DNA of 64,000 nt, from assembly GCA_964489065.1 (NCBI GenBank), contig CAZAXH010000003.1, positions 63,104 to 127,103 of the forward strand, given 5' to 3'. This DNA comes from an uncultured Planctomycetales bacterium (lineage in GTDB: Bacteria; Omnitrophota; Gorgyraeia; Zapsychrales; JANLHA01). Below are positions 6,024 through 24,264 of the stretch, piece by piece. Positions within the stretch are counted from its first letter, which is position 1. Every line of letters starts with the position of its first letter. The translations under genes were made by a program, and so were the position numbers. Under the pieces are notes generated by a model that was given only the letters and a program-made list of their open reading frames with translations, was not told the DNA's origin and searched no databases.

Positions 6024-6464
6024 CTAATAATCAATAAGCTCTCTGCCTACATCCCTACAACGCGCCCCTGCTGCGGTTGATTCACTGCATCCTTCCAAAC
6101 ACTGCAGACACTGCGTGATGTACCCTGTTGTTCCTGGCGGCAGAGTACAGTCGCATGGCGCCGCATCGTAACAATCGCGTGAAATCCACCGGTTAATTAA
6201 CGTACACGGCCGTGTCGGGCCTGTTCCCGAGGTGCAATGCGTGGCATCAAAAAAACACTCTAACGTCCCGCCTCCGTCTCCATAATTCCCAAAAGGCCGG
6301 GGATCATACTGACGTCCCGCGCCAAAAGAATCTCCGGCCTTTTTCCAACTGCCATAATAAGCCCTTAAAATATAACCTTGAAAAACAAATAAGCTAGAAA
6401 GAAGAAAAACAATCAAGGTCATATACTCTAATATAGATTGGGCATGCTTCTTGTGCCGCAACAT
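6024..6464 (-). CDS. Cys-rich Flp/TadE-family prepilin-like protein (146 aa)
   Basis: N-terminus MLRHKKHAQSILEYMTLIVFLLSSLFVF has a class-III (Flp-type) signal, but with Ala rather than Gly before QSILEY; C-terminal part contains 10 Cys. Confidence 0.5.
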   Translation of the reverse strand: MLRHKKHAQSILEYMTLIVFLLSSLFVFQGYILRAYYGSWKKAGDSFGAGRQYDPRPFGNYGDGGGTLECFFDATHCTSGTGPTRPCTLINRWISRDCYDAAPCDCTLPPGTTGYITQCLQCLEGCSESTAAGARCRDVGRELIDY

Positions 6465-6496
6465 GTTTTTCCTTTTAAAACAAACAGTTACAATGC

Positions 6497-9400: not shown

Positions 9401-10546
9401 AGGCGCGGCCGGAGGAAGAGGCGTGTGATATGGGCTTCGTTGATTACAAGTGGCAGGATTCCCTCCGGGAAAGCCCTCCTCCTCCACGCAAGTTCCCGTG
9501 CCACAACAAGCGGGACGAACAGAAGCATCGACACAACAGGGATCACACATAGAAGGAAAACGCATATCCCCGACAGGGTTGGACGGGCAACATGGATGCC
9601 CGGGGTTACGCTGACAATCAATGGGATCAACAAGACCCCAATCATCGGTGTCACACCCCCAATCCGTACAGATATCGGGGTTACCTCCATACAAGAAATC
9701 CGTAAGCGCGGATAAGAATTCGTCAAGGATTGATAAATTTAAATCCGGGATACCCTGAAGCCGACGGGTATAATAATAGGCAAAACGGGAAATATAATCC
9801 GGACCCGAGGCTTTATCATTAGGATCAGCCAAATTGCCAAAGGCGCTGTCGGTATCAAAGTCGAATAAATCCGGTATTTGAGCGGGGTCATTCACGGCCG
9901 TCATCAAAGCACTTTGTACCCCCAACTCCACAGCCATTTCTTTCGGCCCCAGGGAATCTCCCATCATTTTATTCCACATGGACGTTATGCCAGGCTGGGT
10001 TATCGTTACATCAATCACAGCAGCGGCCACGACAAGCACCGCGGCAACAATCGCGGCGGCCAAACCCCAGCCTTCACATTGATATGTCGCCGCACAAATA
10101 ACGACAAGAACCACGACAACAATGGCCGCAATGAGTTTGACCAAAAATCCGGTCCAGGCACAAATCTTCGTTTCTCCATCCAAAGAGGTCATAAACAGCA
10201 TCTGACCATAACTGGCAATAAAAGACGCCATTTTAGAGGCCGCCGTGTTAGCGGCAATGATTGTCAGGGTTTTGCCGTGAGAAATTCTGCCAATATTAAC
10301 CGTGACCGCATATAAAATCAATCCTATCGCCGCGGCTAAAATCAGAATTAAGCCAACCTGTCCGGCAATGTGTCTGGAAGGAATGGTTGGAGTAGTTAAG
10401 GAAGCGCCTTCCTCTTTGGGAGCCAAGAAAAAAGCATTCCATTTTTTCCTTTGCCATTTCCTCGCCTTTCTCACTCCTTTATATAAAAAATGCAACAAGT
10501 TGGCCCCCGGGGTAAAAATGTTAAGATTAAGGCGTTTCCTCTCCAA
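6497..10546 (-). CDS. Giant (1349 aa) Cys/Asp/Pro-rich, probably extracellular protein with N-terminal TM helices; candidate pilus-associated adhesin or tip protein
   Basis: Uninterrupted ORF; hydrophobic N-terminal segments (LILILAAAIGLILYAV, LIAAIVVVVLVVICAATY, AAAIVAAVLVVAAAVI), then Cys-rich stretches (CTDWGCDTDDWGLVDPIDCQRNPGHPCCPSNPVGDMRFPSMCDPCCVDASVRPACCGTGTCVEE) and many DP/DxD motifs; start overlaps the upstream TadE-like gene by about 20 nt (operon-like). Confidence 0.6.
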   Translation of the reverse strand: MERKRLNLNIFTPGANLLHFLYKGVRKARKWQRKKWNAFFLAPKEEGASLTTPTIPSRHIAGQVGLILILAAAIGLILYAVTVNIGRISHGKTLTIIAANTAASKMASFIASYGQMLFMTSLDGETKICAWTGFLVKLIAAIVVVVLVVICAATYQCEGWGLAAAIVAAVLVVAAAVIDVTITQPGITSMWNKMMGDSLGPKEMAVELGVQSALMTAVNDPAQIPDLFDFDTDSAFGNLADPNDKASGPDYISRFAYYYTRRLQGIPDLNLSILDEFLSALTDFLYGGNPDICTDWGCDTDDWGLVDPIDCQRNPGHPCCPSNPVGDMRFPSMCDPCCVDASVRPACCGTGTCVEEEGFPGGNPATCNQRSPYHTPLPPAAPNALLSYPYIFRGMNEDSTNNKNAGAWDPANISFREWFGFDDEHHQYAVNPARPNWNYLIDGTGATLDHSQLIRSGALEYDFYMEDATGYYSADDKPGIFPFFYKLADWGMDLQSLTYGALLPDPPDIHPARDNLECHLCDVDGVAAGTVPAVCAGITSYPAEIGTALELPETPDNALYSGGWCVDAANTGADGDPPQLLDLVPNIDAILADDAVCAQDEGGWKRGGDQFCDPPDEWPYMAECRKAGAPPGGSPPCVEVDPETGTTWPIDCDCGTGGALPPTPPIDRTQAANNFEYVSTNWPDDKLDEFIYGLPEFYEWATGVMDKDKDYLESHFDEWYEEAATWIETPCPSGNAADCPGSCTGDVDGGYWYIWREDLASFYIPIGAWLNPPDADLYVGSGCFINSAAVDPAVWCVPPPQVAANKYADPAYLGFQSGYNGLECPGVSQEEQASFDVSGDGRGDLEDVIACLEWNLHDLAQDASGNPIIYPVTGSQAVGNFEKFDACKWDCDNDPMNSGHSCAILPRSLVPGFDALRFTIPMPEADLIALTLCLGTESIPTCNDDCSSLPGGYGIPAFVPTSDNATLPAPDTSLLTNLRAMYAFCNANPTLNLPNQCRDQATTIDCDSPTVLSDALNCSCTWYGLPTDLLGTCGQLCGVGATPFFDAIETALDTNIGSCGETDPGEWKDLLDQSVLAAANQSMKMAKRWEMLAGREEEAIQIRNILWNGLSHIDAFLSGPAQGLIDACKSWGNIYPPATTSFAIYAWQDEPKDVYNTIRGDWHVVKVEVRTPGRCNSACGTDRWPYIDTYTKSWGMKRCYELKEMTGRVKARVIRYDEDTVGSKIRFPDGTLLWKPQYYHPEGSDQDPTDLEVTCAIMIDPNIAAQTWEWGWRNAFMINQTPTASATPPRGSAEYLDCWNFIHESLLRYGYSTATCAQYFLGGGSGYSGDKGFRVRFVECDENFLNGLN

Positions 10547-10823
10547 AAATATTGCTATTAACTGTCGCGTTTATTTTTGTAATCGAATAAAACATCGGCC
10601 GGACCTGTTCTAACGGACCCGCTGGCTGAGACGTGCTTATAGGAGAAACTAACAAGGCATCGTGAGAATTAAAACGCTTCATCAAATCAGTCCCTGTCCA
10701 GGCAAAGACCTGAATCATGCCAACGACAAGCAAAACAACCCCGATCATCCCGAACATAAATTCTAAAGACACTTGTCCCGGGCGAATATTTTTTTTAAAT
10801 CTAGTCTTTCCGTTTTTTTTCAT
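10527..10823 (-). CDS. tadE: TadE-like pseudopilin (Flp-family N-terminus G/QVSLEF)
   Basis: MKKNGKTRFKKNIRPGQVSLEFMFGMIGVVLLVVGMIQVFAW; start at the second Met (10823) is supported by GAGGGG placed 7 nt upstream; the ORF track start 10838 lacks an RBS. Confidence 0.6.
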   Translation of the reverse strand: MKKNGKTRFKKNIRPGQVSLEFMFGMIGVVLLVVGMIQVFAWTGTDLMKRFNSHDALLVSPISTSQPAGPLEQVRPMFYSITKINATVNSNIFGEETP

Positions 10824-10843
10824 AACGATTCCCCTCATTCTTA

Positions 10844-12559
10844 TTACGGGGCATATCTTCTAATCCAGCGCCTCCCTCTTAGATCGGCAATCCGGCTTCT
10901 CACAAATAACATTAAATTATCCCGGTCAAAACACGTCAATTGTGCGACCCCCGCCATATAACAATTTGTTCCTGTGCTTGGCCGGGTACAAACCTCAACC
11001 GGATTGGGGATTCCGTAAACGCCGTTAGCGCTCGCCCAAGCGGAAGTTCCCCATTCTCGGGGATTCACGTCATCCGCACAAAACCGACCGGTGTCTCTTG
11101 TCAACTGAACTTGTCGCTCAATCACATCTAATTGATCATGCCGTTCCGTGCTTCGGGTATATTGCGACGTATTAGCCGTAAAAATAGGGCCTTCTTCCGT
11201 CCTAAAATAGGTCCCCTGGCCTGTTTCCTGGCCTGGATCAGATTCTGTAAATGTATATACCTGTGCGCCTTCTGAAAAACCAACCGTGCGGGCGAGACAT
11301 TTATAATTTGAACAGACGCCCAAAGTGTTGTTTCCGGTCGTCGTTGATCCAATAACACAATTCCCTGTCGGGGTGGCGCCGCAAGCCCCGCCTATGGTTC
11401 CGGCAAAACGCCATTCCCCTGCCTGGCGGGCATCGGACATAAAAGAGCTGGACATGTCGCCTTCTTCGCTGTCAATTACGTTCACGGTTTGAAGCACTCC
11501 GGACCCCAAGGCTGAATAACTCAGGATGGACTCTTCATAATAATCCCCATCAACATCAACGCTTTCATTCTTCGAGGACTTTTCTCCGCTGGGATCAACA
11601 AAAATTCCCGGCACCCCGCTCCACGGCAAAGTCATCGCTGTTCCATCGACGACTCCGGCTACTAAAAACCACTGCCAAAACTGAATATCCCGGCTCCCGG
11701 CCGGGACATCAGGCACGCCATCAAAATCATAATCAAAGCGGATATCTTGAGGAAGATTGTTACAATTTTTAACACATGTTGTCCCGAAACAGCATGTTTT
11801 ACTTTTGGGATAATTCCCTGAAATGGTAAACAGCAACGTGCAACCTGCGGAGTTCGTTACTAAATCATATTCTCCTGTGCCGGTCCCTCCGGTCGCATAA
11901 ACACATTCCCCCATATAACCTAATTCATAATCTCCGCCATAGCCCACATAAACACAGCTTGAATAACTAACACAACTATTCCACCAACACAGCCCATAAG
12001 GAGGGCTTGCTGGCGGGGCGTTGGAATTAAAATACGCCGGAGCCGAGCCGTTACACGCGGGGATCCAAGATGGCCGGCTTCCGTCAGAATTCGCCAGAGT
12101 AACCGATTTAAAATCCGCGCCCAATAACGGAAAACGTTGCCCATTGATATAAACATCCGAAAGAGGAAGATCCCTTCGATCTCCAAAATCTGTCGGCCGG
12201 AACAAATTTTTTGTCATGGAAGCACTGGCGCTGGCTGTCATAGGGAACCTGTCCCGGGATCCAAATTTTTTACCAGCATCAACATTCAATCTGTCTTCCA
12301 AAATAACAATAGAGGCTACATTCCGGGAATTGGCTCCCTCGTCACCGGCAAAACCAATATATTCACCTTCAGAAGTCCGGTAAGACTCACTCAAAGCAAG
12401 ACGTAAAGCCCGTAATTGCATATTATTAAGCATGCTGGCCTGCATTCCAGATTTAATAATAGAGCCAATGATAAAAATAAGCATGGCCCCAAAAATAGCC
12501 AGTTCCGTTCCTGACTGCCCCAACCGAGAAACTCGAAATGTCCGCGACTCTCGTTTCAT
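10844..12559 (-). CDS. tadG: TadG-like large pseudopilin: TadE-type N-terminus (RLGQSGTELAIFGAMLIFIIGSII) followed by a large Cys/Gly/Thr-rich domain (571 aa)
   Basis: Class-III signal G/QSGTELAI; C-terminal region rich in Cys (CWWNSCVSYSSCVYVGYGG...KTCCFGTTCVKNCNN). Confidence 0.6.
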   Translation of the reverse strand: MKRESRTFRVSRLGQSGTELAIFGAMLIFIIGSIIKSGMQASMLNNMQLRALRLALSESYRTSEGEYIGFAGDEGANSRNVASIVILEDRLNVDAGKKFGSRDRFPMTASASASMTKNLFRPTDFGDRRDLPLSDVYINGQRFPLLGADFKSVTLANSDGSRPSWIPACNGSAPAYFNSNAPPASPPYGLCWWNSCVSYSSCVYVGYGGDYELGYMGECVYATGGTGTGEYDLVTNSAGCTLLFTISGNYPKSKTCCFGTTCVKNCNNLPQDIRFDYDFDGVPDVPAGSRDIQFWQWFLVAGVVDGTAMTLPWSGVPGIFVDPSGEKSSKNESVDVDGDYYEESILSYSALGSGVLQTVNVIDSEEGDMSSSFMSDARQAGEWRFAGTIGGACGATPTGNCVIGSTTTGNNTLGVCSNYKCLARTVGFSEGAQVYTFTESDPGQETGQGTYFRTEEGPIFTANTSQYTRSTERHDQLDVIERQVQLTRDTGRFCADDVNPREWGTSAWASANGVYGIPNPVEVCTRPSTGTNCYMAGVAQLTCFDRDNLMLFVRSRIADLRGRRWIRRYAP

Positions 12560-12579: not shown

Positions 12580-12888
12580 TTAATATGCGGCAACTCTTGA
12601 TGCCCCGTATTTCTCCTCAGTCATATTGGAATCATCATCCCGCATCGTCCACACCCCGGCATTCACCGGAATTGTGGTAATACGTGTAGAAGAAAATCCG
12701 CTGGTTCGTTCGGTAATATCTGTATTGGTCACCCTAGGGTCATATTGGTCTCCCATCCCGTCAACGGATTCCTTCCACCGCCCCTGAACCCCCCGCTTAA
12801 AATATGTGCCCATCCCCAGGAATACTCCCAAAATAATCGTAATCAGCGTCACATATTCCAAGGTGCTTTGTCCGCGTAATAACCTCAT
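12580..12888 (-). CDS. flp: Flp-family prepilin paralog 7 (102 aa, extended C-terminus)
   Basis: MRLLRGQSTLEYVTLITIILGVFLGMG: G/QSTLEY processing motif plus hydrophobic helix. Confidence 0.7.
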   Translation of the reverse strand: MRLLRGQSTLEYVTLITIILGVFLGMGTYFKRGVQGRWKESVDGMGDQYDPRVTNTDITERTSGFSSTRITTIPVNAGVWTMRDDDSNMTEEKYGASRVAAY

Positions 12889-12915
12889 ACTCCCTACCCT
12901 CTTTTTTAAAACTTT

Positions 12916-13254
12916 TTAATTATCTCTATACTGAAACCCCAGATTGGTCGTTGTCGTCGTGACCATTTGCGAATACGAACCATCATAATCAAGCCGCGTT
13001 TCCCCAAAATCTTCCCTTAACCTTTTAACAGAAGCTTGCTCCGTATCAACAATCTGTTCGACCAAATGGCCGTCGAGACCTCCGGGCTGCTCCGCCCCGG
13101 ATTGATTGCCGACCTGATCAGAAACAACCCTGACCATCCCCTGCACCGCTCGTCTCAACATGGGGGTGAGAGAAATCAAGACCGCCACTACGACACTAAC
13201 TAGCATAGCATACTCTAAAAATGTTTGCGCAGAATTTTTATGTTTTCTTCTCAT
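12916..13254 (-). CDS. flp: Flp-family prepilin paralog 6 (112 aa)
   Basis: KNSAQTFLEYAMLVSVVVAVLISL (A/QTFLEY); Thr-rich C-terminus. Confidence 0.65.
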   Translation of the reverse strand: MRRKHKNSAQTFLEYAMLVSVVVAVLISLTPMLRRAVQGMVRVVSDQVGNQSGAEQPGGLDGHLVEQIVDTEQASVKRLREDFGETRLDYDGSYSQMVTTTTTNLGFQYRDN

Positions 13255-13271
13255 TTTTTATTAAAAAAGCC

Positions 13272-13628
13272 TTAATCGGCCAGCGCCGGCGGTAACTGTG
13301 TTTGATTTGTGATTGCACTGATTTGATGTTCGTAAAGCTGTTCGACAATACCTGAGCCTAAAGGAAAAGCCCCTTCTTCTGTCATGGTCGTTGTCGTGTC
13401 CGTGTATCTTGTCGTCATTGAATTGCTATAATACGGCTCATATTGATAGTAAAAAGTTCCCGTATAATCATCCTGTACTGTGCTGGCCATATAATGCAAC
13501 GCATCTCTCGTTCTTCCCTGCAACAAACGTCGGACATAAGTTCCCATGACCGAAATAATTGACACAACCACAAAAAATGTCGTAGCGTATTCAACAAAAG
13601 AGTTTTGACCTTTTTTATTAAGCTTCAT
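13272..13628 (-). CDS. flp: Flp-family prepilin paralog 5 (118 aa)
   Basis: MKLNKKGQNSFVEYATTFFVVVSIISV; C-terminal QYEPYY motif shared with paralog 3. Confidence 0.7.
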   Translation of the reverse strand: MKLNKKGQNSFVEYATTFFVVVSIISVMGTYVRRLLQGRTRDALHYMASTVQDDYTGTFYYQYEPYYSNSMTTRYTDTTTTMTEEGAFPLGSGIVEQLYEHQISAITNQTQLPPALAD

Positions 13629-13750
13629 ATATATTATTTAATGTTCAAACTGATTATAAATAAAGTATGGCTTACCCGAAAGTTGTTTTCCCCCTCAAGT
13701 AAGCCACACTTTATTTAGCTTAAGTCATTCTGGTTATTTAATAAACAAAA

Positions 13751-14071
13751 TTAACCCCAGAACTCCTGTTCAGCATTAATGATAACCTGGTTCTGCAATG
13801 TCTCGGTAACTTCATCCGTATTCAATGTCGTGGTAGAAACACCATAGCCGAATGTTTCAGCCGTGTTACTAACAGTGGTTACAACGCGACGGATGTTCGA
13901 GTTGCCCGGTGAATATTGATCACCGATATCGTCTGTTGCACTCTTTAATCTACCCTGCACACCTCTTTTGATGTAAACTTGGATAGATAAAAGAGCACCG
14001 ATGACGATGATAATCAAGACGGCGTACTCTAAAGTACTTTGCCCTTTTATTTTTCTTAGAAACTTAAACAT
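13751..14071 (-). CDS. flp: Flp-family prepilin paralog 4 (106 aa)
   Basis: KIKGQSTLEYAVLIIIVIGALLSI; GGGAGG RBS immediately upstream of the start. Confidence 0.7.
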   Translation of the reverse strand: MFKFLRKIKGQSTLEYAVLIIIVIGALLSIQVYIKRGVQGRLKSATDDIGDQYSPGNSNIRRVVTTVSNTAETFGYGVSTTTLNTDEVTETLQNQVIINAEQEFWG

Positions 14072-14125
14072 TGAAAATTCCTCCCTATAAAATTCAGATT
14101 TTCGTTACACTAAGTTATCTGGATC

Positions 14126-14500
14126 TTAGATACCATTAATTACACCAAAATTGGTGTCATAGTTTGATCTCTGAAAACCGCCATCAGCACGGGTTCTGTT
14201 GCTGGTGGTATCTAACTGGAACAACCCAGAGGAGTCTGCTCTCATGCCCTGTACTTCTTCTTCCCTGTCATCACGCAGGACATTGTAATCAGATTCCAGA
14301 TAATAAGGTTCATACTGGTTGGTTCTACCCAAGGCGCTTGTGGAATCTGTCAAATAAGCAGAAGCGTCACGAATTCTCGCCTGAATGGTTCGTTGCGCAT
14401 AAGTTTGCATAGCAATGACCGCCGCGACAACAAGGGAAATTAACAGCGCGTATTCGGCTGTTTGCTGTGCTTTTTTATTTTTAATTAACTTTCTAAACAT
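14126..14500 (-). CDS. flp: Flp-family prepilin paralog 3 (124 aa)
   Basis: KNKKAQQTAEYALLISLVVAAVIAM; C-terminal NQYEPYY motif. Confidence 0.65.
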   Translation of the reverse strand: MFRKLIKNKKAQQTAEYALLISLVVAAVIAMQTYAQRTIQARIRDASAYLTDSTSALGRTNQYEPYYLESDYNVLRDDREEEVQGMRADSSGLFQLDTTSNRTRADGGFQRSNYDTNFGVINGI

Positions 14501-14539
14501 TTATGTTTCCTCCATTTACTTTTGTCTCTTGATAATTAA

Positions 14540-14746
14540 TTACGGATTATCATAACGAGATGTTTGTAACCGATTGGCCATATCAAACATGCCATTCGTA
14601 CCCGTACGCAAGGTTGAATTAAACGCTTGGTTAAAAATACCATTAGTCGGGTTTAAGAAAATAATCAGAATGGCAATAACACCTGTCACCAAAATAATAT
14701 ACTCGAGGGTGCTTTGCCCTTTCTTTTTTCTGTTCTTGTATACCAT
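14540..14746 (-). CDS. flp: Flp-family prepilin paralog 2 (68 aa)
   Basis: MVYKNRKKKGQSTLEYIILVTGVIAILIIF; AGGAGG RBS upstream. Confidence 0.75.
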   Translation of the reverse strand: MVYKNRKKKGQSTLEYIILVTGVIAILIIFLNPTNGIFNQAFNSTLRTGTNGMFDMANRLQTSRYDNP

Positions 14747-14811
14747 TAGTAATTCCTCCTATAGTTTGATCCACACCACTCAAAGCTAGGCGGGTTTTCC
14801 CTCCCGCCACT

Positions 14812-14961
14812 TTAATCTTTGAATCCTTCTGAAATCACCTGCTGTGTTGCCTGAATTGATCTAAACACGTAGGTGCTCATGGCAAGCATGGCTGACGCGA
14901 CTAAGGCCACGACGATGGCATATTCTACTATGTTTTGTCCTTTTTCTTGTTTCCATGGATT
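14812..14961 (-). CDS. flp: Flp-family prepilin paralog 1 (about 50 aa; start taken at an internal Met with a strong RBS)
   Basis: MGHNPWKQEKGQNIVEYAIVVALVASAMLAM; GGAGGTGA 8 nt upstream of the ATG at 14961; the longer ORF to 15036 has no RBS. Confidence 0.7.
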   Translation of the reverse strand, partial: NPWKQEKGQNIVEYAIVVALVASAMLAMSTYVFRSIQATQQVISEGFKD

Positions 14962-15167
14962 ATGCCCCATCGCGCCTTCACCTCCGTGCCCACAGATGAT
15001 TCGTACCCAACTCTTGCAACCTAAGAGTGGATTCACTCCGGGCTATATTACCGGATATTTCCGGTATCCTCCAGATTTGGGTCAAAAAACATAACAAAAA
15101 TCTGGAGGATTAAACCCCCGACAAAAGGGGTAAAAAGCTAATTTTAAAATTATGAAAGAGCTAAAAC

Positions 15168-15375: not shown

Positions 15376-17088
15376 TTATTGTCGACGGGAAAAAATTTTC
15401 ATCATCAATTTTTTTCCATGAAAAGTCACGATGTTTCTTTCATTAATTCGCGTCACGGCTGACTTCAGCTCCTCAAAACAGGCATAATCATTACCGGGGA
15501 TGAGCAGAACTTGCATCGCCTCGGGATGAGCCGAAATAGTTCCCGAAAGAGGAAGAATTATGTCCTTCAAATGCACCGGAAGTAGGCTTGTTTTCCCGGA
15601 AGAAAAATAGGTTTGCCAAGCATAATGTGCTAAAAATTCAGAAAAAATTTTTTTAATATTAATATTTCTATTAATATTATATTTATTTCCTTGAAATAGC
15701 AGGAATTGAGAATCTTTGGCCTTGACTTTTCCAACAGAATAATTAAATCCTCGTTGAAAATTAGGCCAACGACGATAGTATGTCTTTATTACATCACTGG
15801 CATGATACAAATTATTCGGAGCATTGGTTAATATGACAGCAAAAGGACTTGCCGTCGGATTTTCTTTTAACGGAAAAACACGTAACCCCAATCTTGGTTG
15901 AAAATCATCATCAAAAGGAAGCGTTGTTAAAGTTTCAAAAAAATACACGCAATCCTCGAAAAACGGATCAACAAATTTTTCTAATTTATTGCTTCGCAAG
16001 GATTTCAGCAAAGGATAAAACTCTGGTTGCCAAGGCCACAAACATGTAATGAAATATCTTTTTTTAGGGGGAATATAATCAAAACAGGCGACTTCATTCC
16101 TTTCTACATCTAACAGAGAAACCTGAATAATTTTTTTCCCTTCCTTATTATCAAAAGCCCCGCATAGATCTAAAAACTGCCGGGCACAATATGCGTGTTG
16201 AGATAAATTTTCTTTGATGTTTAAGATTGGACAAAAACAAAAAACAACAGGTTGGACATTACTGATTATCTCTTCAGAAATTGTTTTGGTACACTGTGTT
16301 ATGGTATTAAAAAATGGCAAATCTGAATCTTTTGTCCAAACTGAACTCATTTCCGCATCTAAAAACAAATTTTCACCATTCTCTAATTTCAACTGAACAA
16401 AAAACACCTGCGTCATGTAATATTGCAAATTTATCATGAACTTCAACACAATTTCTTCCCAATTTTCCATGCTGCTTAATTCTGACAATAATCCTTCTGC
16501 ATTAAAGCCCCTCTTGTCACTTTGAGAAAGGCCTTTTATCCAAAGCCCTTCAGAAATTTCATTTTTTTCAAAAATTTCCATATAAAGCAATTTTTCAACC
16601 AAGCTGTTAATTTGAATGTCTTCTAAAAACGAAAACCTTTCGGAAAAAATCTCTGCCAAAAAAGGTTCCCGGAAAAGCTCCCATTCTGCCGCTTTTATAA
16701 ACATATAACCAACATCTGGAATAACCTGACAATCTTTTTTTGACGTATCAATGTTTGGGAAGGAGGCTTCTTTTTGAATAGCCGTTTTTACTTCCAAAAG
16801 ATCTTTGGGGCATGTTTGCAAAGTTGACTTATTTATTAATGCTTTTCTGGCCCTTTTTCTAGGTGCCAAAGGTTTTTTTTCTAAAGGTGCGTTTAAAGTT
16901 CTTCTTCCTACCGGACTGTTAAGGTTAGCTTCTTTCAAAACAGCGCTAATGGAAGATTTAGATAATTTAATTACAAATTTTTTATAAACCAAATCGGAAA
17001 GCTTTCGGCAGCTTAAGGCCGGACTCGCGGCTTTTTCAGCCACAATAAAATCAATGACCTCTTCTGTAAGTTTATATACGACACCCAT
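15376..17088 (-). CDS. Hypothetical protein (570 aa) with an N-terminal HTH-like region; AT-rich gene interrupting the Tad locus
   Basis: Long ORF; N-terminus LTEEVIDFIVAEKAASPALSCRKLSDLVYKKFVIKLSKSSISAVLKE resembles an HTH; the rest could not be assigned; composition is visibly more AT-rich than neighbouring genes. Confidence 0.5.
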   Translation of the reverse strand: MGVVYKLTEEVIDFIVAEKAASPALSCRKLSDLVYKKFVIKLSKSSISAVLKEANLNSPVGRRTLNAPLEKKPLAPRKRARKALINKSTLQTCPKDLLEVKTAIQKEASFPNIDTSKKDCQVIPDVGYMFIKAAEWELFREPFLAEIFSERFSFLEDIQINSLVEKLLYMEIFEKNEISEGLWIKGLSQSDKRGFNAEGLLSELSSMENWEEIVLKFMINLQYYMTQVFFVQLKLENGENLFLDAEMSSVWTKDSDLPFFNTITQCTKTISEEIISNVQPVVFCFCPILNIKENLSQHAYCARQFLDLCGAFDNKEGKKIIQVSLLDVERNEVACFDYIPPKKRYFITCLWPWQPEFYPLLKSLRSNKLEKFVDPFFEDCVYFFETLTTLPFDDDFQPRLGLRVFPLKENPTASPFAVILTNAPNNLYHASDVIKTYYRRWPNFQRGFNYSVGKVKAKDSQFLLFQGNKYNINRNINIKKIFSEFLAHYAWQTYFSSGKTSLLPVHLKDIILPLSGTISAHPEAMQVLLIPGNDYACFEELKSAVTRINERNIVTFHGKKLMMKIFSRRQ

Positions 17089-17386: not shown

Positions 17387-17629
17387 ATGATCAAATGTCC
17401 CTACTGTTACGAAATGCTTCCTTCGACAGAAAATCTACGTTGTCCACATTGTTTACAATTTATCATTGATTCGGCAATAACCACAGACTTCCCTAGTCTT
17501 GATAAAAAACACTGTCTTTTTTGTGGGAAAAAAATATTATTGGAAGCTAAAATTTGCCGGCATTGTAAACGCTGGCTTGACGAAATCGAACAGGCCGCCA
17601 GAGATATCGATCCAGAAGACCTGGTTTAA
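17387..17629 (+). CDS. Small zinc-ribbon protein (four CxxC pairs)
   Basis: MIKCPYCYEM...CPHC...CLFCGKK...CRHCKRW; 80 aa. Confidence 0.45.
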   Translation: MIKCPYCYEMLPSTENLRCPHCLQFIIDSAITTDFPSLDKKHCLFCGKKILLEAKICRHCKRWLDEIEQAARDIDPEDLV

Positions 17630-17997
17630 CAGAACTCATTCGGATTTGGCTTTTCCTCCTCCAAGAGAAGGGCGTCTCCTTTTTCTGTTCGAGAAGAATC
17701 AATCACCCCAACGGGTAATTCTATTGCTTTTTTGGCCCGGAAAAAATACGGGCTTATTTGGAAGGGTTTAATATTTCTGACCAATCCTAAAACCTTATTA
17801 TTTTTATTAACAAAAATAACATCTATGGCAAAACGCATAAAAAGCATATGGATTTGCCGGCACTCTGTAATCACCAACCCTTCTTCTGGAGACAGGGATC
17901 CACGGTTAAGAAGGCCAACCAAACGAGATACAACCGTATCGGCTAACTGAGCCCGTTCGGCAATAAGTGTACCTTTTGTTTGATTAGTGATACGCAC
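17626..17997 (-). CDS. DUF192 family protein
   Basis: LIAERAQLADTVVSRLVGLLNRGSLSPEEGLVITECRQIHMLFMRFAIDVIFVNKNNKVLGLVRNIKPF matches the DUF192 pattern (GLm.r...G..l......iHm.fM.f.iDviF.d....v). Confidence 0.6.
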   Translation of the reverse strand: MRITNQTKGTLIAERAQLADTVVSRLVGLLNRGSLSPEEGLVITECRQIHMLFMRFAIDVIFVNKNNKVLGLVRNIKPFQISPYFFRAKKAIELPVGVIDSSRTEKGDALLLEEEKPNPNEFC

Positions 17998-20159
17998 TAG
18001 CTTTTGGAGGGTTTAGAAAACATCTGCTTATCAATAGAAAGCCCCATAGTCACAAAATCCTCAAAACTTTTCGGAATATACCCCGTTGCTTCATGATCAC
18101 CGATAATCGTTCCGTTTTCATCAATGCCTTTCTGATTAAAAATAAAAATATCCCGCAAATCCAAGGCATGGTCACTCGTCAGCCCAACAACTTCTGTTAT
18201 CCCGGTAATTTTCCTGGAGCCATCGGAAAATCTGGCCACGTGAACAATAAGGTCGATGGCCGAAGAGATCATGTCGTTAATGGCCCGCATCGGCAACTCA
18301 ATGCCACTTAGAAGAATCATAGAGCTCATACGAACCAAAACATCCCGGGTAGAATTAGCATGCAACGTGGTCATAGAACCGTCATGCCCCGTATTCATAG
18401 CCTGTAACATGTCCAGGACTTCTGGGCCTCGACATTCCCCAATAAGTATACGATCCGGCCGCATACGTAAAGAATTTATAAAAAGATCCCGAATAGTCAC
18501 GGCGCCCTTGCCTTCAATGTTCGTCGGACGGGACTCCAGCCGTCCCCAATGGCTCTTTTTCAGCCTTAATTCCGCAGCGTCCTCAATCGTAATAATACGT
18601 TCGTTATCCGGAATAAACTGTGAAATAACATTTAATAACGTGGTCTTCCCGGAACCGGTCCCGCCTGAAACAATTATATTTTTTCTCGCAAGAACACACG
18701 CCTGTAAAAATTCTCTCATGATCTTGCTGAAACTGCGATATTTTTGTTCCAGGTCTTCGACATCCAGTCTCTCTGCGCCGAATTTACGAATAGTGATCAT
18801 CGGACCATTTAAAGAAAGCGGAGGAATTATGGCGTTAAAACGGGACCCGTCCGGAAGGCGGGCGTCCACCATGGGGGTTGATTCATCAATGCGGCGCCCC
18901 AAAGGCGCGATAATACGGTCAATGATCGCCCGCATTTGCTGGTCGGAAACAAATTTTCTGTTCGTCAAAATAAGCTTCCCGTGTTTTTCAATATATAACT
19001 CATCTTTATTATTTCCCATAATATCCGAAACATCGGGATCAGCCAAAAACTCTTCTAGCGCCCCTAATCCCAAAGCCTCGTCAACAATTTCTTTTACCAG
19101 CCTCCGGCGTTCTTCGTGAGAAGAAATCATCGCCCCTTTCTCTTCAATAAGTAAATTGCTGACAATTTTCCTGGCGTCATCTTTCAATTCTGCCGCTTTA
19201 GCCGGATCGCTGAGGTTGTCGGGACTTAAATCCTCTATGTTAAGCCGGCTGACCAATTTTTCATGAATCCTTCTCTTTAAAGAAGTAATTTCATCCTCTT
19301 CTTTTGAAAAAACGCCTCCGGGAATATTTTGTGGCGTAATGCCAAATTTTTCCCAAAACTTACCCGGTTTATCTAGCCCTTCGGTGTTTCTTTCTTTTTC
19401 AATTTCAAAAGCCTGAACAAAAAGTTCTTCTTTCTTCAGGTCGTTCACCATCCGGCTAAAGGCTTCGGTGACAGGGCTCTTGGGCGAATCAATAATCACG
19501 GGAACCCCGCGATTTAAGGCCATGCCTACAGCGCGCCCATCCGAAGGAATACGAGAGAAGATTTCGCAGGCCAAAGCCGAACGGACCTCCTGCCAAGCAA
19601 CACCTCCCCGGCTTTCCGCGCGGTTTAAAATCAACTTAACCATTTTTAACGGAAAATGCAGACTCTGCAACATCTCTAAACACCACTTCACCTGATATAC
19701 GGCCAAAACATCGGGGGTTGCGACAAGAAAAATAACGTTACAGTGATCGAGCACCGTTAACATCGTTTCGCTGAACAATTTTCCAACATCAACAATGATA
19801 AAGTCGTAAACCTGCCCCACCTTTCTGAAAAAAGGTTTAATGTTTTCAGACGAGATATGTCCGGCTTGTTTGGCATGTAAAACGCCCGGAAGGAAATCCA
19901 GCCCGCTGGAATGAGAGCTGACGTATTTTTTGATAACTTCCGCATCTTCGCTTTTTTCTATTTCAGCCAATAAATTAACCAAGCTGTTTCGTGGCGCCAA
20001 ATTTAACATACGCGCCATGTCATGCGTAGCCTGAAAATCCATATCAAGCAACAAAACCCTCTTCCCCGACAAAGCTAACGCCGTTGCCATATTAACGCTG
20101 ACAAATGTTTTCCCAACACCGCCTTTATTGCTAAAAACACTGATTATTTTTGAACTCAT
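17997..20159 (-). CDS. tadZA: Fused Tad pilus ATPases: N-terminal TadZ/CpaE-like ParA/MinD-family domain plus C-terminal TadA/CpaF secretion ATPase
   Basis: N-terminus VFSNKGGVGKTFVSVNMATALALSGKRVLLLDMD (deviant Walker A); C-terminal half NIIVSGGTGSGKTTLLNVI, ITIEDAAELRL, TGHDGSMTTLHANS (CpaF/VirB11-type Walker A, Asp box, His box); 720 aa in a single ORF. Confidence 0.8.
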   Translation of the reverse strand: MSSKIISVFSNKGGVGKTFVSVNMATALALSGKRVLLLDMDFQATHDMARMLNLAPRNSLVNLLAEIEKSEDAEVIKKYVSSHSSGLDFLPGVLHAKQAGHISSENIKPFFRKVGQVYDFIIVDVGKLFSETMLTVLDHCNVIFLVATPDVLAVYQVKWCLEMLQSLHFPLKMVKLILNRAESRGGVAWQEVRSALACEIFSRIPSDGRAVGMALNRGVPVIIDSPKSPVTEAFSRMVNDLKKEELFVQAFEIEKERNTEGLDKPGKFWEKFGITPQNIPGGVFSKEEDEITSLKRRIHEKLVSRLNIEDLSPDNLSDPAKAAELKDDARKIVSNLLIEEKGAMISSHEERRRLVKEIVDEALGLGALEEFLADPDVSDIMGNNKDELYIEKHGKLILTNRKFVSDQQMRAIIDRIIAPLGRRIDESTPMVDARLPDGSRFNAIIPPLSLNGPMITIRKFGAERLDVEDLEQKYRSFSKIMREFLQACVLARKNIIVSGGTGSGKTTLLNVISQFIPDNERIITIEDAAELRLKKSHWGRLESRPTNIEGKGAVTIRDLFINSLRMRPDRILIGECRGPEVLDMLQAMNTGHDGSMTTLHANSTRDVLVRMSSMILLSGIELPMRAINDMISSAIDLIVHVARFSDGSRKITGITEVVGLTSDHALDLRDIFIFNQKGIDENGTIIGDHEATGYIPKSFEDFVTMGLSIDKQMFSKPSKS

Positions 20160-20356
20160 AGTCTTGTAAAATATAATTATGCTGTCGATTTTTAAAAATG
20201 TACTTTTAACTAATAGTTTTTAGTATACAAACGAAACATGCTTTTGGCAAGAATTCTTTGGAAGGAAATCAACACATCCCCCGCTGAAGAATGGCAAAAA
20301 AAGAATGCGGGTTTCTTCAACGGGGGATGTGTATTTTGTTTACAAAAACTACAAAT

Positions 20357-22363
20357 TTATTCCGATCCCGTCCCCTCTAAAACAGCTTCCTGGCTGTAAA
20401 CAATAGGGATGGTTACAACCAATTCTTCTAATTTCAGCGCTTCAGGGAAAGAAGAAAATGGGGCTAAAATACGCGCCGTATTAATTGCGTCTTTATCAAA
20501 AGCCTCGTGCCCGGAAGACGTCTGAACACGCGCATCATTAAGTGTCCCATCACTTAAAATAACCAACGAAAGAACCACCGTGCCTTCCCAACCTTGCTCT
20601 TTAGCTTCCATGGGGAACGAAATCGCCCGGGAAATTTTCTTTTGAATAGCTTGCACATATTCTGTAATCGCCTGGGACGTCGCATCGTCAATGCTTGCCC
20701 CTCCTTCAGGAGAAGTAGGCTCGGGCGAGGGTTCCTGTGGTTCCTGTTCCGCATCTGATTCGGGAACCTCCTCTGCCGGAAGATCGACCACCGATTCTTC
20801 CTCAAATCCAGCCGCCAGCTGGGACATATCGGCTTCTTCTGTTTCCATCGGTTCTGTTTTTTCCGCCATGGATTCTTCTCCGAAGGGCGACTCTTCCATT
20901 TCCTGCTCCGACAACTCTTCTGCCGGAACGTCCGCTTCCTCTGTTTCTTCTAAATCTTCAGCAAGGATGGCATCGATTTCATCTGATATAGAATCCAATT
21001 TTTCCAGAGAAGCGTCTTCCTCTTCGTCGGCCGCAATCTTGTCTTCAGGAACCACCGGCTGTGCCTGGGCTTCTTCTTGATATAAATCTTCCGCTATTGA
21101 ATATTTTTTACGAACTTCCTGGTTCTCAAGATTCATGTTTTTCTGCGTAACAATACGAGGCGTCAAAGAAATAACCACTTCCTGTTCCGTGTCCGTCGGC
21201 CAATTTTTGTTGCGGAACAAAAAGCCAATAATCGGGATCCTTCTCAGGAAAGGAACCCCGGTAACTGTTTCGGCTTTATTGTGCTTAATAAGCCCTGCCA
21301 GAACGATGGTCTGCCCATCATCCAAAAAAAGGATAGTGTCGGCGGTCCTGCTCGTAAAGGCCACGTTCTCCCCTACCGCGTTAGAGGCATCGATGTCTCT
21401 AATCCCGACATTTAACTTAACTTCTATCTTCTCCCCAACAATCTTTGGCGTAACCTTAACATCGATCCCATAAGAAGTATACTCAACATTCTCCTGGACG
21501 CTGGCGCCGCCGGTAGATGTTGTCGTGCTTCTTACCGGGATTTCCCCTCCGACCAGGAAAGATGCCGGCTCGTCGTTCTTAACCACGATGCTGGGTTTCG
21601 ATAAAACCCTGGCCTCTCCTTCCGCAATCAGCGCCGTCACAATGGCCTGAATAGCGGAAGTCCTTTGAAAATCTCCAATCTTAAACAAATCCTTAACGCT
21701 GCCGTCAAAAGTGGGCATTGTTTCTTCATAGGCAAAAATCATCCCGTCGCCGCCCGTGTTCCAGTCTATCCCCAAGGCCTTTTGTAAAGTCGTGTTCAGT
21801 TCAGAAATTTGCACATCAATCTGAATAAGGTCGCTGTATTCCTCAACGTAATTAAGCACATAATTTGAAAACGGGCCCAATATTTCTTCATAGGCTGCTT
21901 TTTTTTGATTAAGCACTGTCCCGGTTAAAATAATCTTTTGTTCAAAAATGTTTTTTTCCATTTTAACCGTCGACACGCCTATCGCGTCAAACAGCCTTTG
22001 CAGACGCGCCATAAGCGAATCCAGGTCCTCAGCTAAAACCCGAACAAAAACCTGCCGTTTTCCATATTCATCCCAGATAAACAGCTGTGTTTCCCCAACC
22101 GCTTGCCCCACGATCAGCAGCTCATCAATATCCGCATTCGCAATCTCAATAACCCCTGGTTTACTGATGGCGATCCTGGTCAGCTGATACACCTTTAACG
22201 AAATCAGATCCCCTTTATACAAATAGACATCCTGTGTCTCGGCAGAATCAAAAACATCCTGAACCTGAGCCAAGGCCGGATTTACGGAAAACTGAGATAA
22301 AATAAAACAAACAGCGAAAACACCCCTAACGATTAATTGTTTAGTACTAGTTATTTTGTGCAT
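20357..22363 (-). CDS. cpaC: Tad secretin (CpaC/RcpA family) with a C-terminal acidic low-complexity linker and a TonB C-terminal-like domain
   Basis: Secretin core ARVLSKPSIVVKNDEPASFLVGGEIPV...VISLTPRIV; acidic stretch EDLEETEEADVPAEELSEQEMEE...; C-terminal ISFPMEAKEQGWEGTVVLSLVILSDGTLNDARVQTSSGHEAFDKDAINTARILAPFSSFPE matches the TonB_C pattern (YP..A...g.eG.V.l.f.I..dG.v....v..SSG...lD.aAl.av...p.p). Confidence 0.8.
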   Translation of the reverse strand: MHKITSTKQLIVRGVFAVCFILSQFSVNPALAQVQDVFDSAETQDVYLYKGDLISLKVYQLTRIAISKPGVIEIANADIDELLIVGQAVGETQLFIWDEYGKRQVFVRVLAEDLDSLMARLQRLFDAIGVSTVKMEKNIFEQKIILTGTVLNQKKAAYEEILGPFSNYVLNYVEEYSDLIQIDVQISELNTTLQKALGIDWNTGGDGMIFAYEETMPTFDGSVKDLFKIGDFQRTSAIQAIVTALIAEGEARVLSKPSIVVKNDEPASFLVGGEIPVRSTTTSTGGASVQENVEYTSYGIDVKVTPKIVGEKIEVKLNVGIRDIDASNAVGENVAFTSRTADTILFLDDGQTIVLAGLIKHNKAETVTGVPFLRRIPIIGFLFRNKNWPTDTEQEVVISLTPRIVTQKNMNLENQEVRKKYSIAEDLYQEEAQAQPVVPEDKIAADEEEDASLEKLDSISDEIDAILAEDLEETEEADVPAEELSEQEMEESPFGEESMAEKTEPMETEEADMSQLAAGFEEESVVDLPAEEVPESDAEQEPQEPSPEPTSPEGGASIDDATSQAITEYVQAIQKKISRAISFPMEAKEQGWEGTVVLSLVILSDGTLNDARVQTSSGHEAFDKDAINTARILAPFSSFPEALKLEELVVTIPIVYSQEAVLEGTGSE

Positions 22364-22448: not shown

Positions 22449-23252
22449 TTAGAGGCTTCTGCCTCCCTGAAAGATTTGAATAAACGGCTTTACTTCATCA
22501 ACTCGACCGGTAGAAACAGGCTGTATAACCGCTCTTTCTTTAGGAATAATTAACTCCGTTCCTTGTTTTTCAAACACATAATCGGCTAATGCGCTCCAGG
22601 AAGCTGCCTGAATAATTTCGGTTTCCGTTTCAGCCGGAGCGCGGAGAATCAACTGCATTCTGCCGTGTTTTTCAATAAAAGACATTAAGCTGGCTTCTTC
22701 CGGAGTCAGCGCAAACGTAATATTAAGCGACCGTGCGGTCTGCTGTTGTTCATACCCGCCCGGCGCCTGGAGATTCGTTCCCACCGCCAATATCTGTATA
22801 TTCTGAAAAACCATCGACGACACGTTTTGTTCGCTGTTGGACACCGGATCAGGGATATCCATATGCGCAATTACGTCGATATAATCTCCGGGGTTGACCA
22901 ACCCGCCAACCGCAGACAAAGAATCAATCCGGACCGTATAAGCTCTTTTCCCTGCCGGGGTACGCAACGCCAAAGAGGATTTCGGCACCGCGGGCAACTC
23001 TGCCGGCTTTTGTTCCTGAACCTTGGTCGCCGTAGCCGCCTGCATGCTGGCCAGCTTCTGCATTTCCTTGCGCAAAGAATCAATCTCCCGCATCATAGGC
23101 TTGACTTTTTTATTTTCAAACTCCTCCGATATTTTGGCTGTTTCCTGGTCAACCCGGGTTTGAATATAGTGGCCAGTTCCAACAGAAGCCACAAGCCCGA
23201 GCCCGACAGCCAAAATAATAATGGCTATTTGTTTTTTGTTTTCTAAATTCAT
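22449..23252 (-). CDS. cpaB: Flp pilus assembly protein CpaB/RcpC
   Basis: N-terminal TM helix; SAF/CpaB-like region VRIDSLSAVGGLVNPGDYIDVIAHMD...ILAVGTNLQAP. Confidence 0.75.
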   Translation of the reverse strand: MNLENKKQIAIIILAVGLGLVASVGTGHYIQTRVDQETAKISEEFENKKVKPMMREIDSLRKEMQKLASMQAATATKVQEQKPAELPAVPKSSLALRTPAGKRAYTVRIDSLSAVGGLVNPGDYIDVIAHMDIPDPVSNSEQNVSSMVFQNIQILAVGTNLQAPGGYEQQQTARSLNITFALTPEEASLMSFIEKHGRMQLILRAPAETETEIIQAASWSALADYVFEKQGTELIIPKERAVIQPVSTGRVDEVKPFIQIFQGGRSL

Positions 23253-23256
23253 TTGC

Positions 23257-24264
23257 CTACTCCTCTAATAATTTTAAGTTAACTTGTATATCCGTCTGCT
23301 GTCTTATCTTTTCTAAATGCTCTAAAATAGCCTGTTGTTGTTTTAATAAAGTCAACCCTGTAATTATATCTTCCTTAATATCCTCGAGCTTCTGGGGCTC
23401 TCCGCCTTGTTTTTCTTCTAGTTTAACAATATAGTAGCCATTCGGCCCCTGGAAAACCCCACTCACATCGCCCACTTCCAACGCTTCTACAACCTTTTGC
23501 ATTTTTGGAAAGTCAAATTCTGATTTCAAGCCCAAATCCCCTTTTTGCCAGGCGGAGTTGCTTTTTGATTTCTCTTTCACCTTTTCAACAAAATCGGCCC
23601 CCTGATATAGCTCCACTAAAATCTGCTTCGCTTCCTCTTCTGTTTCTACAACAAGTTCTCGGATTCTCCACTGAGCTTGCTCAGTAAACTCTTCTTTATT
23701 CGCCTCATAGTATTCTTGGGCTTCCTCTTCTGTAACGGCAATCTCTTTTGTGAGTCGGCTGGCAACCTCCCTAACCAACAGTGTCCGACGAAATTCTTCA
23801 ACCGCCTCTGATATGTCTTTATCTTTAGCGATTCCTGAATTCTCGGCGTCCTGCACCAAAAGTTGTTGACGAATAAGTTCTTCCAATATCATTTTGTTCT
23901 GCTCCACATCAGCAGGATCATAATCCGGCACAACTTCTTTCAGGGCCGCCAGTCTTTCCTTAAATTCCTCTATAGTTAAAACCCAATTCCCCACCTTGGC
24001 TAAAACATTGCCAGAAACAGCAACTGAACCTGCAGTTTCCTGAGGATCGGGAGAAACAGGTTTTTTTTCTTCTGTTTGAGCAGGAGGGGCAACCGGCTGC
24101 TTAACCGGCGCGGTATTTTGTGCTAGCTGAACGACAGGCGTTGGTTTCGTTTTTACGCCCTGCGAATTATTGGTTTGTGATGACGATGTTTTTTCACACC
24201 CAAAAGCAAACACAAATAAAAAAAAGCCCACAACAACAGTTAATTTTTGTTTATTGAACGACAT
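23257..24264 (-). CDS. Lipoprotein peptidyl-prolyl cis-trans isomerase (SurA/PrsA-like, parvulin type)
   Basis: Lipobox FAFGC; SurA-N-like helical region, then rotamase-like KGDLGLKSEFDFPKMQKVVEALEVGDVSGVFQGPNGYYIVKLEE. Confidence 0.65.
   Translation of the reverse strand: MSFNKQKLTVVVGFFLFVFAFGCEKTSSSQTNNSQGVKTKPTPVVQLAQNTAPVKQPVAPPAQTEEKKPVSPDPQETAGSVAVSGNVLAKVGNWVLTIEEFKERLAALKEVVPDYDPADVEQNKMILEELIRQQLLVQDAENSGIAKDKDISEAVEEFRRTLLVREVASRLTKEIAVTEEEAQEYYEANKEEFTEQAQWRIRELVVETEEEAKQILVELYQGADFVEKVKEKSKSNSAWQKGDLGLKSEFDFPKMQKVVEALEVGDVSGVFQGPNGYYIVKLEEKQGGEPQKLEDIKEDIITGLTLLKQQQAILEHLEKIRQQTDIQVNLKLLEE

Follow-up and report, generated by a model that had tools for sequence, protein, structure and literature searches.

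A Tad-type pilus secretin fused to a C-terminal TonB_C domain in Omnitrophota

We analysed a 64-kb stretch of DNA (64,000 nucleotides, hereafter the window; contig CAZAXH010000003.1, from a genome deposited as an uncultured Planctomycetales bacterium and placed by GTDB in the Omnitrophota) and found that the secretin of its Tad (type IVc) pilus locus carries an extra folded domain: the protein encoded at 20357-22363 on the minus strand continues from its secretin core into a long low-complexity linker and ends in a TonB_C domain. It is a Tad secretin that lacks the canonical TadD-binding tail and has gained a TonB_C module. The fusion is real and ancient, and the added domain is functionally constrained, as strongly as the pore core itself.

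Architecture of the fused secretin

The gene is a single open reading frame (ORF) of 668 amino acids (aa) on the minus strand, with an ATG start and a stop codon at 20357-20359; a plus-strand reading of the same interval was ruled out, its frame being full of stops. The parts of the gene are listed below, with the confidence of the structural model given as the predicted local distance difference test (pLDDT) and selection as the ratio of non-synonymous to synonymous substitution rates (dN/dS).

20357..22363, minus strand: complete ORF, Tad-type secretin with a C-terminal TonB_C domain (ORF list, translation, Pfam, NCBIfam; a 92%-identical homologue, P0001, has the same four Pfam domains)
22268..22363, minus strand: predicted Sec signal peptide, residues 1-32, with predicted cleavage after PALA (AxA) (hydrophobicity, conserved Ala at -1)
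22244..22267, minus strand: motif QVQDVFDS, residues 33-40, a candidate ligand strand (alignment; TolA-box/TonB-box-like)
22037..22216, minus strand: T2SS-T3SS_pil_N domain, residues 50-109 (Pfam PF13629, E 9.2e-8, 32.1 bits vs. a cut-off of 23; pLDDT >90)
21149..21634, minus strand: secretin core (outer-membrane beta-barrel and gate), residues 244-405 (Pfam PF00263, E 2.2e-41, 141.7 bits vs. a cut-off of 27.5; PDB sequence matches; Foldseek)
20687..21133, minus strand: acidic low-complexity linker, residues 411-559, Glu/Asp/Ala/Ser/Pro-rich and predicted to be mostly disordered (composition, pLDDT <50, dN/dS)
20393..20686, minus strand: predicted TonB/TolA-type C-terminal domain with its leading helix, residues 560-657 (Pfam, NCBIfam, PDB sequence match, models, fold search, dN/dS)

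The pil_N domain is the N-terminal periplasmic domain typical of CpaC/RcpA. The secretin part also gave partial NCBIfam matches to the GspD, PilQ, and MshL secretin models, and its core ends at residue 405 with ISLTPRIV. A PDB sequence search with the secretin matched the Acidithiobacillus caldus structure 8jvb (4e-29) and Pseudomonas aeruginosa RcpA, 8odn (6e-21); Foldseek, run on a full-length model, retrieved A. caldus 9wfd and 8jvb, GspD, PilQ, InvG, and RcpA, with TonB C-terminal domains matched separately. Because Flp pilin genes, CpaB, a CpaE-CpaF fusion, and two TadB/TadC-like (T2SSF) genes surround the gene (CpaB upstream, CpaE-CpaF downstream, the others nearby), we assign the protein, on this sequence evidence, as a Tad pilus secretin of the RcpA/CpaC type.

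The signal peptide holds the sole 19-residue window of the protein with a Kyte-Doolittle value above 1.6. Its cleavage site, between PALA and QV, was placed by eye from the sequence, and 79% of 66 aligned homologues have Ala at -1; Sec-dependent export through this N-terminal signal is what the sequence predicts. Since no hydrophobic segment besides the signal peptide was found in the protein by the Kyte-Doolittle measure, the polypeptide has no inner-membrane anchor and, once exported, should be anchored solely through its outer-membrane barrel.

In the linker, Glu makes up 27% of residues 430-565, Ala 13%, Asp and Ser 10% each, and Pro 9%; the net charge of this stretch is -47. AlphaFold gave pLDDT values below 50 at residues 441-450 and 474-557, so most of the linker is predicted to be disordered; short helices of low confidence appear in the full-length model at 407-433 and 454-472. 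Linker length varies between 41 and 238 aa in 118 homologues, and linker composition runs from strongly acidic to Lys-rich depending on the lineage. Because length and charge both vary, the linker behaves as a spacer.

An earlier reading of the window made without database searches (the sequence-only reading) had described this gene as a Tad secretin whose core, ending in ISLTPRIV, is joined by an acidic, Glu/Asp/Pro-rich linker to a TonB_C-like domain. The locus, the domain boundary, and the composition of this protein's linker agree with that description, as do the Pfam matches to both Secretin and TonB_C and the TonB/TolA-type predicted fold; acidity of the linker, however, is a property of this protein that its homologues do not all share.

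Fold of the C-terminal domain

The last part of the protein matched Pfam TonB_C (PF03544) over residues 581-656 (E 1.5e-14, 54.6 bits vs. a gathering score of 24.6) and the NCBIfam model tonB_Cterm, TIGR01352 (E 3.4e-15, 56.1 bits vs. 27.1); the match to Pfam TonB_2 (PF13103), over residues 568-640, was weaker (E 2.2e-6, 28.1 bits vs. a cut-off of 22). We built a full-length AlphaFold2 model of the secretin, as a monomer, on an alignment of 66 sequences. The N-terminal domains had pLDDT values above 90, the barrel mostly 75-93, and residues 560-657 values of 90-96, with the secondary structure of the C-terminal domain in the order long helix, short helix, strand, strand, helix, strand. The final 113 aa, modelled on their own with AlphaFold, had a mean pLDDT of 86 and a predicted template modelling score of 0.73.

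When this shorter model was compared with the PDB by Foldseek, the top 25 matches were all C-terminal domains of TonB, domain III of TolA (TolA-III), HasB, or FusB, with a probability of 1.00 for nearly all of them (0.57-0.97 for three of the weakest). The best was the Helicobacter pylori TonB C-terminal domain, 5lw8 (E 1.6e-5, 30% identity, root-mean-square deviation 2.2 A), followed by P. aeruginosa TolA-III, 1lr0 (E 2.7e-5). A PDB sequence search likewise gave H. pylori TonB as the best solved relative (E 3e-5): the leading helix EYVQAIQKKIS resembles EFLMKIQTAIS, and the last strand TIPIVYS resembles KIPIAYS, in that protein. Invariant or near-invariant residues are Y569, P584, A587, W592, G594, G606, S617-G618, F622-D623, N628-T629, P635, F639, P653, and Y656, and four conserved patches are specific to the family: GWEGT, FDKDAxNTA, ILAPFxPFP, and TIPIVYS. 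From the profile matches and the models, we regard the domain as a true member of the TonB_C family with a predicted TonB/TolA-III fold, a three-stranded sheet packed on helices.

Constraint and spread of the fusion

In the 66-sequence alignment, mean column identity was 0.70 in the TonB_C domain, 0.68 in the secretin core, and 0.67 in pil_N, compared with 0.18 in the linker. Nei-Gojobori dN/dS, calculated against the closest available DNA (locus L001, 79% aa identity), was lowest in TonB_C (0.023) and the secretin core (0.030), higher in the N-domains (0.093), and highest in the linker (0.227); with dS near 1, all four values are approximate.

The closest homologue (92% identity) comes from a metagenome-assembled genome of a Candidatus Omnitrophota bacterium. 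Secretin and TonB_C modules were both present in 118 of the 120 best homologues (the best 120 of 464). Scanning one genome per GTDB species returned at least 545 relatives, of which the best 80 loci (L001-L080) were examined; secretin-TonB_C is the standard architecture in all 80, not a peculiarity of one genome. The TonB_C profile matched the secretin ORF itself in 78 of them, the exceptions being one copy cut by a contig end and one with an apparent frameshift (L024, which has an overlapping ORF), and no other TonB_C gene was found within 10 kb of the secretin in the 80 loci. Most of these loci are titled Omnitrophota and many of the rest “uncultured Planctomycetales”, with “Phycisphaerae” and “Bathyarchaeia” labels on some contigs; given the same synteny, we take the non-Omnitrophota labels as placeholder or mis-binned names.

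The domain is doubled in some lineages. Tandem TonB_C domains occur in eight of the 80 loci, and a tandem subclade of the homologues (P0012-P0014, P0025, P0028, P0030, P0031, P0037-P0041, P0065, and P0071) has two domains that each match the family profile at E<=1e-29; in several of these secretins, moreover, an acidic stretch is inserted behind the signal peptide, ahead of the N-terminal motif described below. In an exhaustive profile search with the C-terminal domain, 91 of 1.84 billion cluster representatives matched at E<=1e-30. Among 136 new best profile matches, 64 also had a secretin module and the rest were fragments or unrelated proteins with multiple TonB_C repeats; divergent representatives bearing an organism name were few, and again Omnitrophota (for example, Ca. 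Aceula lacicola). This search, partly swamped by the tandem-repeat proteins, gives the size of the family but no clean nearest relative. A word-indexed search with the 109-aa C-terminal domain returned 13 candidates and two matches; it missed the family itself and is uninformative on relatives outside secretins.

Among the best profile matches were also proteins of 300-1300 aa with three to six tandem TonB_C-like repeats and without a secretin module (P0123, P0136, P0138, P0148, P0159, P0176, and others).

We give virtually no credence to the possibility that the fusion is an artefact, whether through mis-assembly or read-through across two genes, or because the domain is a remnant in decay. 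What could suggest it is the frameshifted copy in L024 and a related nanopore-type contig (locus L081; ENA ERZ21869516, contig_25) on which the secretin is split into three ORFs (pil_N, Secretin, and TonB_C). On that same contig, however, CpaE-CpaF is broken into two ORFs as well, which points to indel errors, and the split ORFs are probably long-read errors of this kind; moreover, the fusion is a single ORF in 78 of 80 independent species-level assemblies, the TonB_C domain is under strong purifying selection, and its AlphaFold model is confident. A 139-aa stand-alone TonB_C protein (P0121) was considered as a natural split of the gene and rejected, since the secretin and CpaE-CpaF are both chopped on its contig. 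The L081 case shows that stand-alone TonB_C proteins should be counted with care in long-read assemblies.

A conserved motif at the mature N-terminus

Directly after the predicted cleavage site, and outside the Pfam pil_N match, lies the octad QVQDVFDS, for which the family consensus is E-[LVI]-Q-D-V-[VIF]-D-[ST]; D39 is kept in 97% of sequences. The alignment with the unfused Tad-like secretin of A. caldus (8jvb) starts only at residue 40. In lineages with N-terminal insertions the motif stays beside pil_N and is not at the extreme terminus, and secretins of the tandem-TonB_C subclade have a single copy of it. QVQDVFDS resembles the mature N-terminus of Escherichia coli TolB, EVRIVIDS, and is also TonB-box-like; the likeness is short and was noticed post hoc.

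By analogy with TolA and TonB, the leashed heads could capture this strand of their own protein, in cis or from neighbouring subunits, an arrangement that we consider doubtful. Equally doubtful is its extension, in which the captured strand would tie the lower end of the periplasmic N-domain ring to the upper end of the barrel, or else would be set free on docking of CpaB. The peptide QVQDVFDSAETQDVYLY would then be the candidate binding partner for residues 556-668. Were strand capture true, the secretin would have a self-contained, pilotin-free route of assembly or a gating latch; the protein would be a “Rosetta-stone” fusion, indicating that TonB-family C-terminal domains are able to bind pilus secretins directly; and a mechanism would be on offer for the need of P. 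aeruginosa TonB3 and Acinetobacter baumannii TonB2 in type IV pilus function.

A proposed docking role and its alternatives

In characterised secretins the C-terminal S-domain is on the periplasmic side of the barrel, and by comparison with them we infer that the TonB_C domain is tethered on the periplasmic side of the outer membrane. The tail of the S-domain has a defined task in P. aeruginosa RcpA: it is unstructured, and its last four residues bind the pilotin TadD, an interaction essential for assembly (PMC10499894). We propose, with moderate confidence and by analogy, that the TonB_C domain is a passive docking module, which anchors, aligns, or helps assemble the secretin, and not a transducer of the proton-motive force. 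A ring of 13-14 subunits would present 13-14 TonB_C heads on leashes long enough to cross the periplasm; each head would bind a periplasmic or envelope partner, most probably by edge-strand capture (beta-augmentation) of a short exposed strand, and the docking would stand in, in part, for the pilotin-binding tail of the S-domain. Candidate partners are the secretin's own N-terminal motif, CpaB, an outer-membrane protein or lipoprotein, and peptidoglycan. Strand addition is proposed because TonB-transporter and TolA-III-TolB complexes are the analogues: TonB binds TonB boxes, and TolA-III the TolB N-terminus, in this manner, and the fold matches include solved complexes of both kinds (BtuB-TonB 2gsk, FhuA-TonB 2grx, FoxA-TonB 6i97, and TolAIII with a TolB peptide, 6s3w).

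Several points weigh against this proposal. The structures behind it were modelled as monomers, and the periplasmic place of the C-terminus is taken from other secretins. The absence of TadD and of ExbB/ExbD holds for the neighbourhood only, and the single E. coli queries limit the sensitivity of the phmmer searches. The conserved proline in the last strand, TIPIVYS, could weaken edge-strand pairing, although H. pylori TonB shares IPI-YS. The TonB C-terminal domain has been reported to bind peptidoglycan as well, so the docking could be to the cell wall and not to protein.

Contacts with periplasmic proteins or with peptidoglycan were two of the three roles that the sequence-only reading had offered, and both are plausible; the third, coupling to an energised partner in the inner membrane, has the least support. 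If the tethered heads bound peptidoglycan, they would fix the secretin ring to the sacculus. The domain would be periplasmic and multivalent, its leash of 41-238 aa suits reaching the wall, Pfam scans found no AMIN, LysM, or OmpA-like domain in the locus, and Tad machines have no known peptidoglycan-handling component (PMC12307814); type IVa pili offer a parallel in the N-terminal AMIN domains of PilQ and in TsaP, a LysM protein described as anchoring PilQ to peptidoglycan (PMC8811193). A cell-wall anchor is nevertheless rather improbable in our judgement, because the domain matches no recognised peptidoglycan-binding domain in sequence or fold, all its fold matches are protein-binding domains of the TonB/TolA type, and GWEGT, FDKDAxNTA, ILAPFxPFP, and TIPIVYS are not known peptidoglycan-binding motifs. 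We also see as unlikely a built-in substitute for a pilotin, in which TonB_C docks onto an outer-membrane protein or lipoprotein, or onto BAM or Lol, and so seeds secretin assembly in place of the contact between the RcpA tail and TadD. The domain sits exactly where the pilotin-binding S-domain does (PMC10499894), and the SurA-like chaperone adjoining in 70 of 80 loci suggests a dedicated outer-membrane assembly route. No TadD-like or other tetratricopeptide-repeat (TPR) lipoprotein gene was found among the ORFs of the conserved locus scanned with Pfam, a search of the locus and not of the genome, so a TadD gene may lie outside it; the protein does not need a very long leash to reach its own membrane, and the idea is a special case of docking more than a truly separate mechanism.

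For an energised role, a TonB/ExbBD or Tol-type motor would engage the domain to gate the secretin or to drive the passage of pilus or substrate. The TonB_C family does couple inner-membrane motors to outer-membrane proteins, and TonB3 of P. aeruginosa and TonB2 of A. baumannii affect type IV pilus function (PMC8811193), but here a signal peptide is followed by secretin domains, so that, lacking an inner-membrane anchor, the polypeptide could not transmit ExbBD force in the manner of TonB. Nor did phmmer find any match at E<0.01 to ExbB, ExbD, TolQ, or TolR, either in the window or across the 1.23 Mb that the 80 loci comprise; this was a search of neighbourhoods with single verified E. coli sequences (ExbB/ExbD) as queries and accordingly of limited sensitivity. 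No TonB-dependent receptor was found among the window proteins scanned with Pfam. With neither an anchor nor ExbB/ExbD nearby, TonB-style energy transduction is unlikely, and the linker, disordered and variable, is not a conserved rigid Pro-rich rod; we consider coupling of this kind a long shot. A ball-and-chain plug, with the leashed heads sealing the periplasmic vestibule of an undocked secretin until CpaB or the pilus displaces them, is likewise very unlikely in our view. There is a precedent: undocked PilQ channels leak and are sealed by the periplasmic plug proteins SlkA/B, and the authors of that 2026 study speculate that other types of plug exist in bacteria without SlkA/B (PMC13392014). 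The geometry is fitting as well, since the channel subunit carries a small folded head on a long, flexible leash. The argument, however, is purely analogical, with no similarity to the Slk proteins; 13-14 heads per pore (26-28 in the tandem subclade) far exceed the need, and the conservation of TonB-type features is more in keeping with a specific ligand than with a steric plug.

The Tad locus and its neighbourhood

The secretin, CpaB, CpaE-CpaF, Flp pilin, and TadB/C genes form one co-directional cluster on the minus strand, and synteny of the genes within the 10-kb flanks is kept in 50-79 of the 80 related loci. The neighbours of the secretin gene are as follows.

23257..24264, minus strand: SurA-like peptidyl-prolyl isomerase, upstream (Rotamase_2 1.3e-19, weak SurA_N; 70/80 loci)
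22449..23252, minus strand: CpaB/RcpC, the Tad periplasmic alignment-ring protein, immediately upstream (Pfam RcpC 8.4e-23, TIGR03177 2e-24; 79/80 loci)
17997..20159, minus strand: CpaE/TadZ-CpaF/TadA fusion of 720 aa, immediately downstream (AAA_31/ParA at residues 3-241, T2SSE at 364-643; TadA family 4.6e-93; 75/80 loci)
17626..17997, minus strand: DUF192 protein (Pfam DUF192 4.8e-16; 62/80 loci)
15376..17088, minus strand: 570-aa ORF with no Pfam or NCBIfam match (56/80 loci)
12580..15036, minus strand: seven small Flp/class-III-signal pilin genes, at 14812-15036, 14540-14746, 14126-14500, 13751-14071, 13272-13628, 12916-13254, and 12580-12888 (G/xxxxEY-type N-termini; Class_IIIsignal 1.9e-7; Flp_Fap 1.1e-5, below the Pfam cut-off)
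6024..12559, minus strand: larger pilin-like or unknown ORFs (no Pfam match)
4225-5112 and 5145-5999, minus strand: two T2SSF (TadB/TadC-like platform) genes (Pfam T2SSF 5.3e-14 and 1e-17)

CpaE and CpaF are separate genes in model Tad systems; in the locus of the window, CpaE/TadZ (ParA/MinD-like) and CpaF/TadA (T2SSE) are fused into a single protein, and the start of the DUF192 gene overlaps its stop. The SurA-like isomerase, directly upstream of cpaB, may serve the secretin as its own chaperone in the periplasm. Pilin-like genes are unusually many: larger ORFs of 571, 103, and 146 aa also have pilin-like N-termini, and a Cys-rich 1349-aa ORF (TTG start) within 6024-12559 has a hydrophobic N-terminal region. 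Next to TadB/C, an ORF of at least 1193 aa (1-3580, minus strand) runs off the left end of the window; it has a Peptidase_C39 domain, of the cysteine protease type that processes bacteriocins, at residues 216-297 (E 4.6e-10), and could belong to a long protein of the kind typical of Omnitrophota. Between the 570-aa ORF and the DUF192 gene, an 80-aa double-zinc-ribbon ORF on the plus strand (17387-17629; DZR_2 2.1e-5, below the Pfam cut-off) may not be a real gene.

On the other side of the Tad locus, mdh, a CN-hydrolase gene, gyrA, gyrB, dnaN, and dnaA follow on the minus strand (24389-34668), and yidC, parA, and parB on the plus strand (35486-39222); with these genes adjoining, the locus is origin-proximal. 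The mdh/CN-hydrolase/gyrA neighbourhood is kept in 36-61 of the 80 related loci. In the cultivated Ca. Velamenicoccus archaeovorus, an expressed Tad locus is at chromosome positions 12,382-29,832 (PMC10066038), a low coordinate that, on the number alone, fits an origin-proximal position.

Previous reports and significance

As the sequence-only reading had suspected, the fusion seems not to have been described: we found no paper on it in the literature searched. Hundreds of the proteins are present in databases under the names “TonB family protein” (NCBI) or “CpaC” (JGI), and the automatic NCBI name hides a secretin. Seymour et al. (2023) analysed Omnitrophota Tad loci and the phylogeny of RcpA and never mention TonB (PMC10066038), while a 2026 preprint reports “TonB-domain content” in the pilus- and secretion-rich flanks of giant Omnitrophota genes, with the proteins not identified; these may belong to the same secretin family.

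Omnitrophota are ultra-small bacteria, probably predatory or parasitic. Their Tad locus is considered central to host attachment, and its expression is reported for the one cultivated member (PMC10066038). A secretin with its own TonB/TolA-type domain is a different solution from separate pilotins, AMIN or LysM anchors, and plugs, one in which the TonB_C fold is put to use on an outer-membrane tether and away from ExbBD. The fusion may also be relevant to the effect of TonB paralogues on type IV pili in pathogens.

Comparison with known systems

Compared with RcpA/CpaC (P. aeruginosa RcpA, 8odn; A. caldus, 8jvb and 9wfd), the fused protein has the same signal peptide, pil_N domain, and secretin core, and its gene adjoins those for CpaB/RcpC, a TadZ/TadA-type ATPase, Flp pilins, and TadB/C. 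It differs in having a linker of about 150 aa and a predicted folded TonB_C domain instead of a short TadD-binding tail, in the lack of a TadD-like gene in the locus, and in the extra conserved heptapeptide at the mature N-terminus.

The C-terminal domain is most like that of H. pylori TonB (5lw8, 6sly), with 30% identity, a leading helix, an IPI-YS last strand, and the same predicted fold, and in TonB, too, a long low-complexity spacer precedes the domain. Unlike in TonB, it is carried by an outer-membrane secretin and not by an N-terminal inner-membrane anchor, with no ExbB/ExbD nearby, and the motifs GWEGT, FDKDAxNTA, and ILAPFxPFP are specific to the secretin-fused family. The spacer of E. 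coli TonB is a rod of alternating Glu-Pro and Lys-Pro, whereas that of the secretin is acidic and predicted to be disordered. TolA domain III (1lr0, 6s3w) is the second-best fold match, with the weaker Pfam match to TonB_2, and its TolB ligand EVRIVIDS resembles the secretin N-terminus QVQDVFDS; TonB_C, however, outscores TonB_2, and the protein has neither a TolQ/R, TolB, and Pal context nor the inner-membrane anchor of TolA.

Other secretins have extra modules that anchor or protect them, including the AMIN domains of PilQ, TsaP (LysM), GspAB, the pilotins PilF, TadD, and AspS, and SlkA/B (PMC8811193, PMC10499894, PMC13392014). The TonB_C module is comparable to these, but has a TonB/TolA-type fold and is fused C-terminally on a long leash, whereas AMIN domains are N-terminal and the others are separate proteins. 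The TonB paralogues TonB3 (PA0406) of P. aeruginosa and TonB2 of A. baumannii are linked genetically to type IV pili by a mechanism as yet unexplained (PMC8811193); those proteins are free-standing, anchored in the inner membrane, and associated with type IVa pili, whereas the TonB_C domain described here is covalently part of a Tad secretin.

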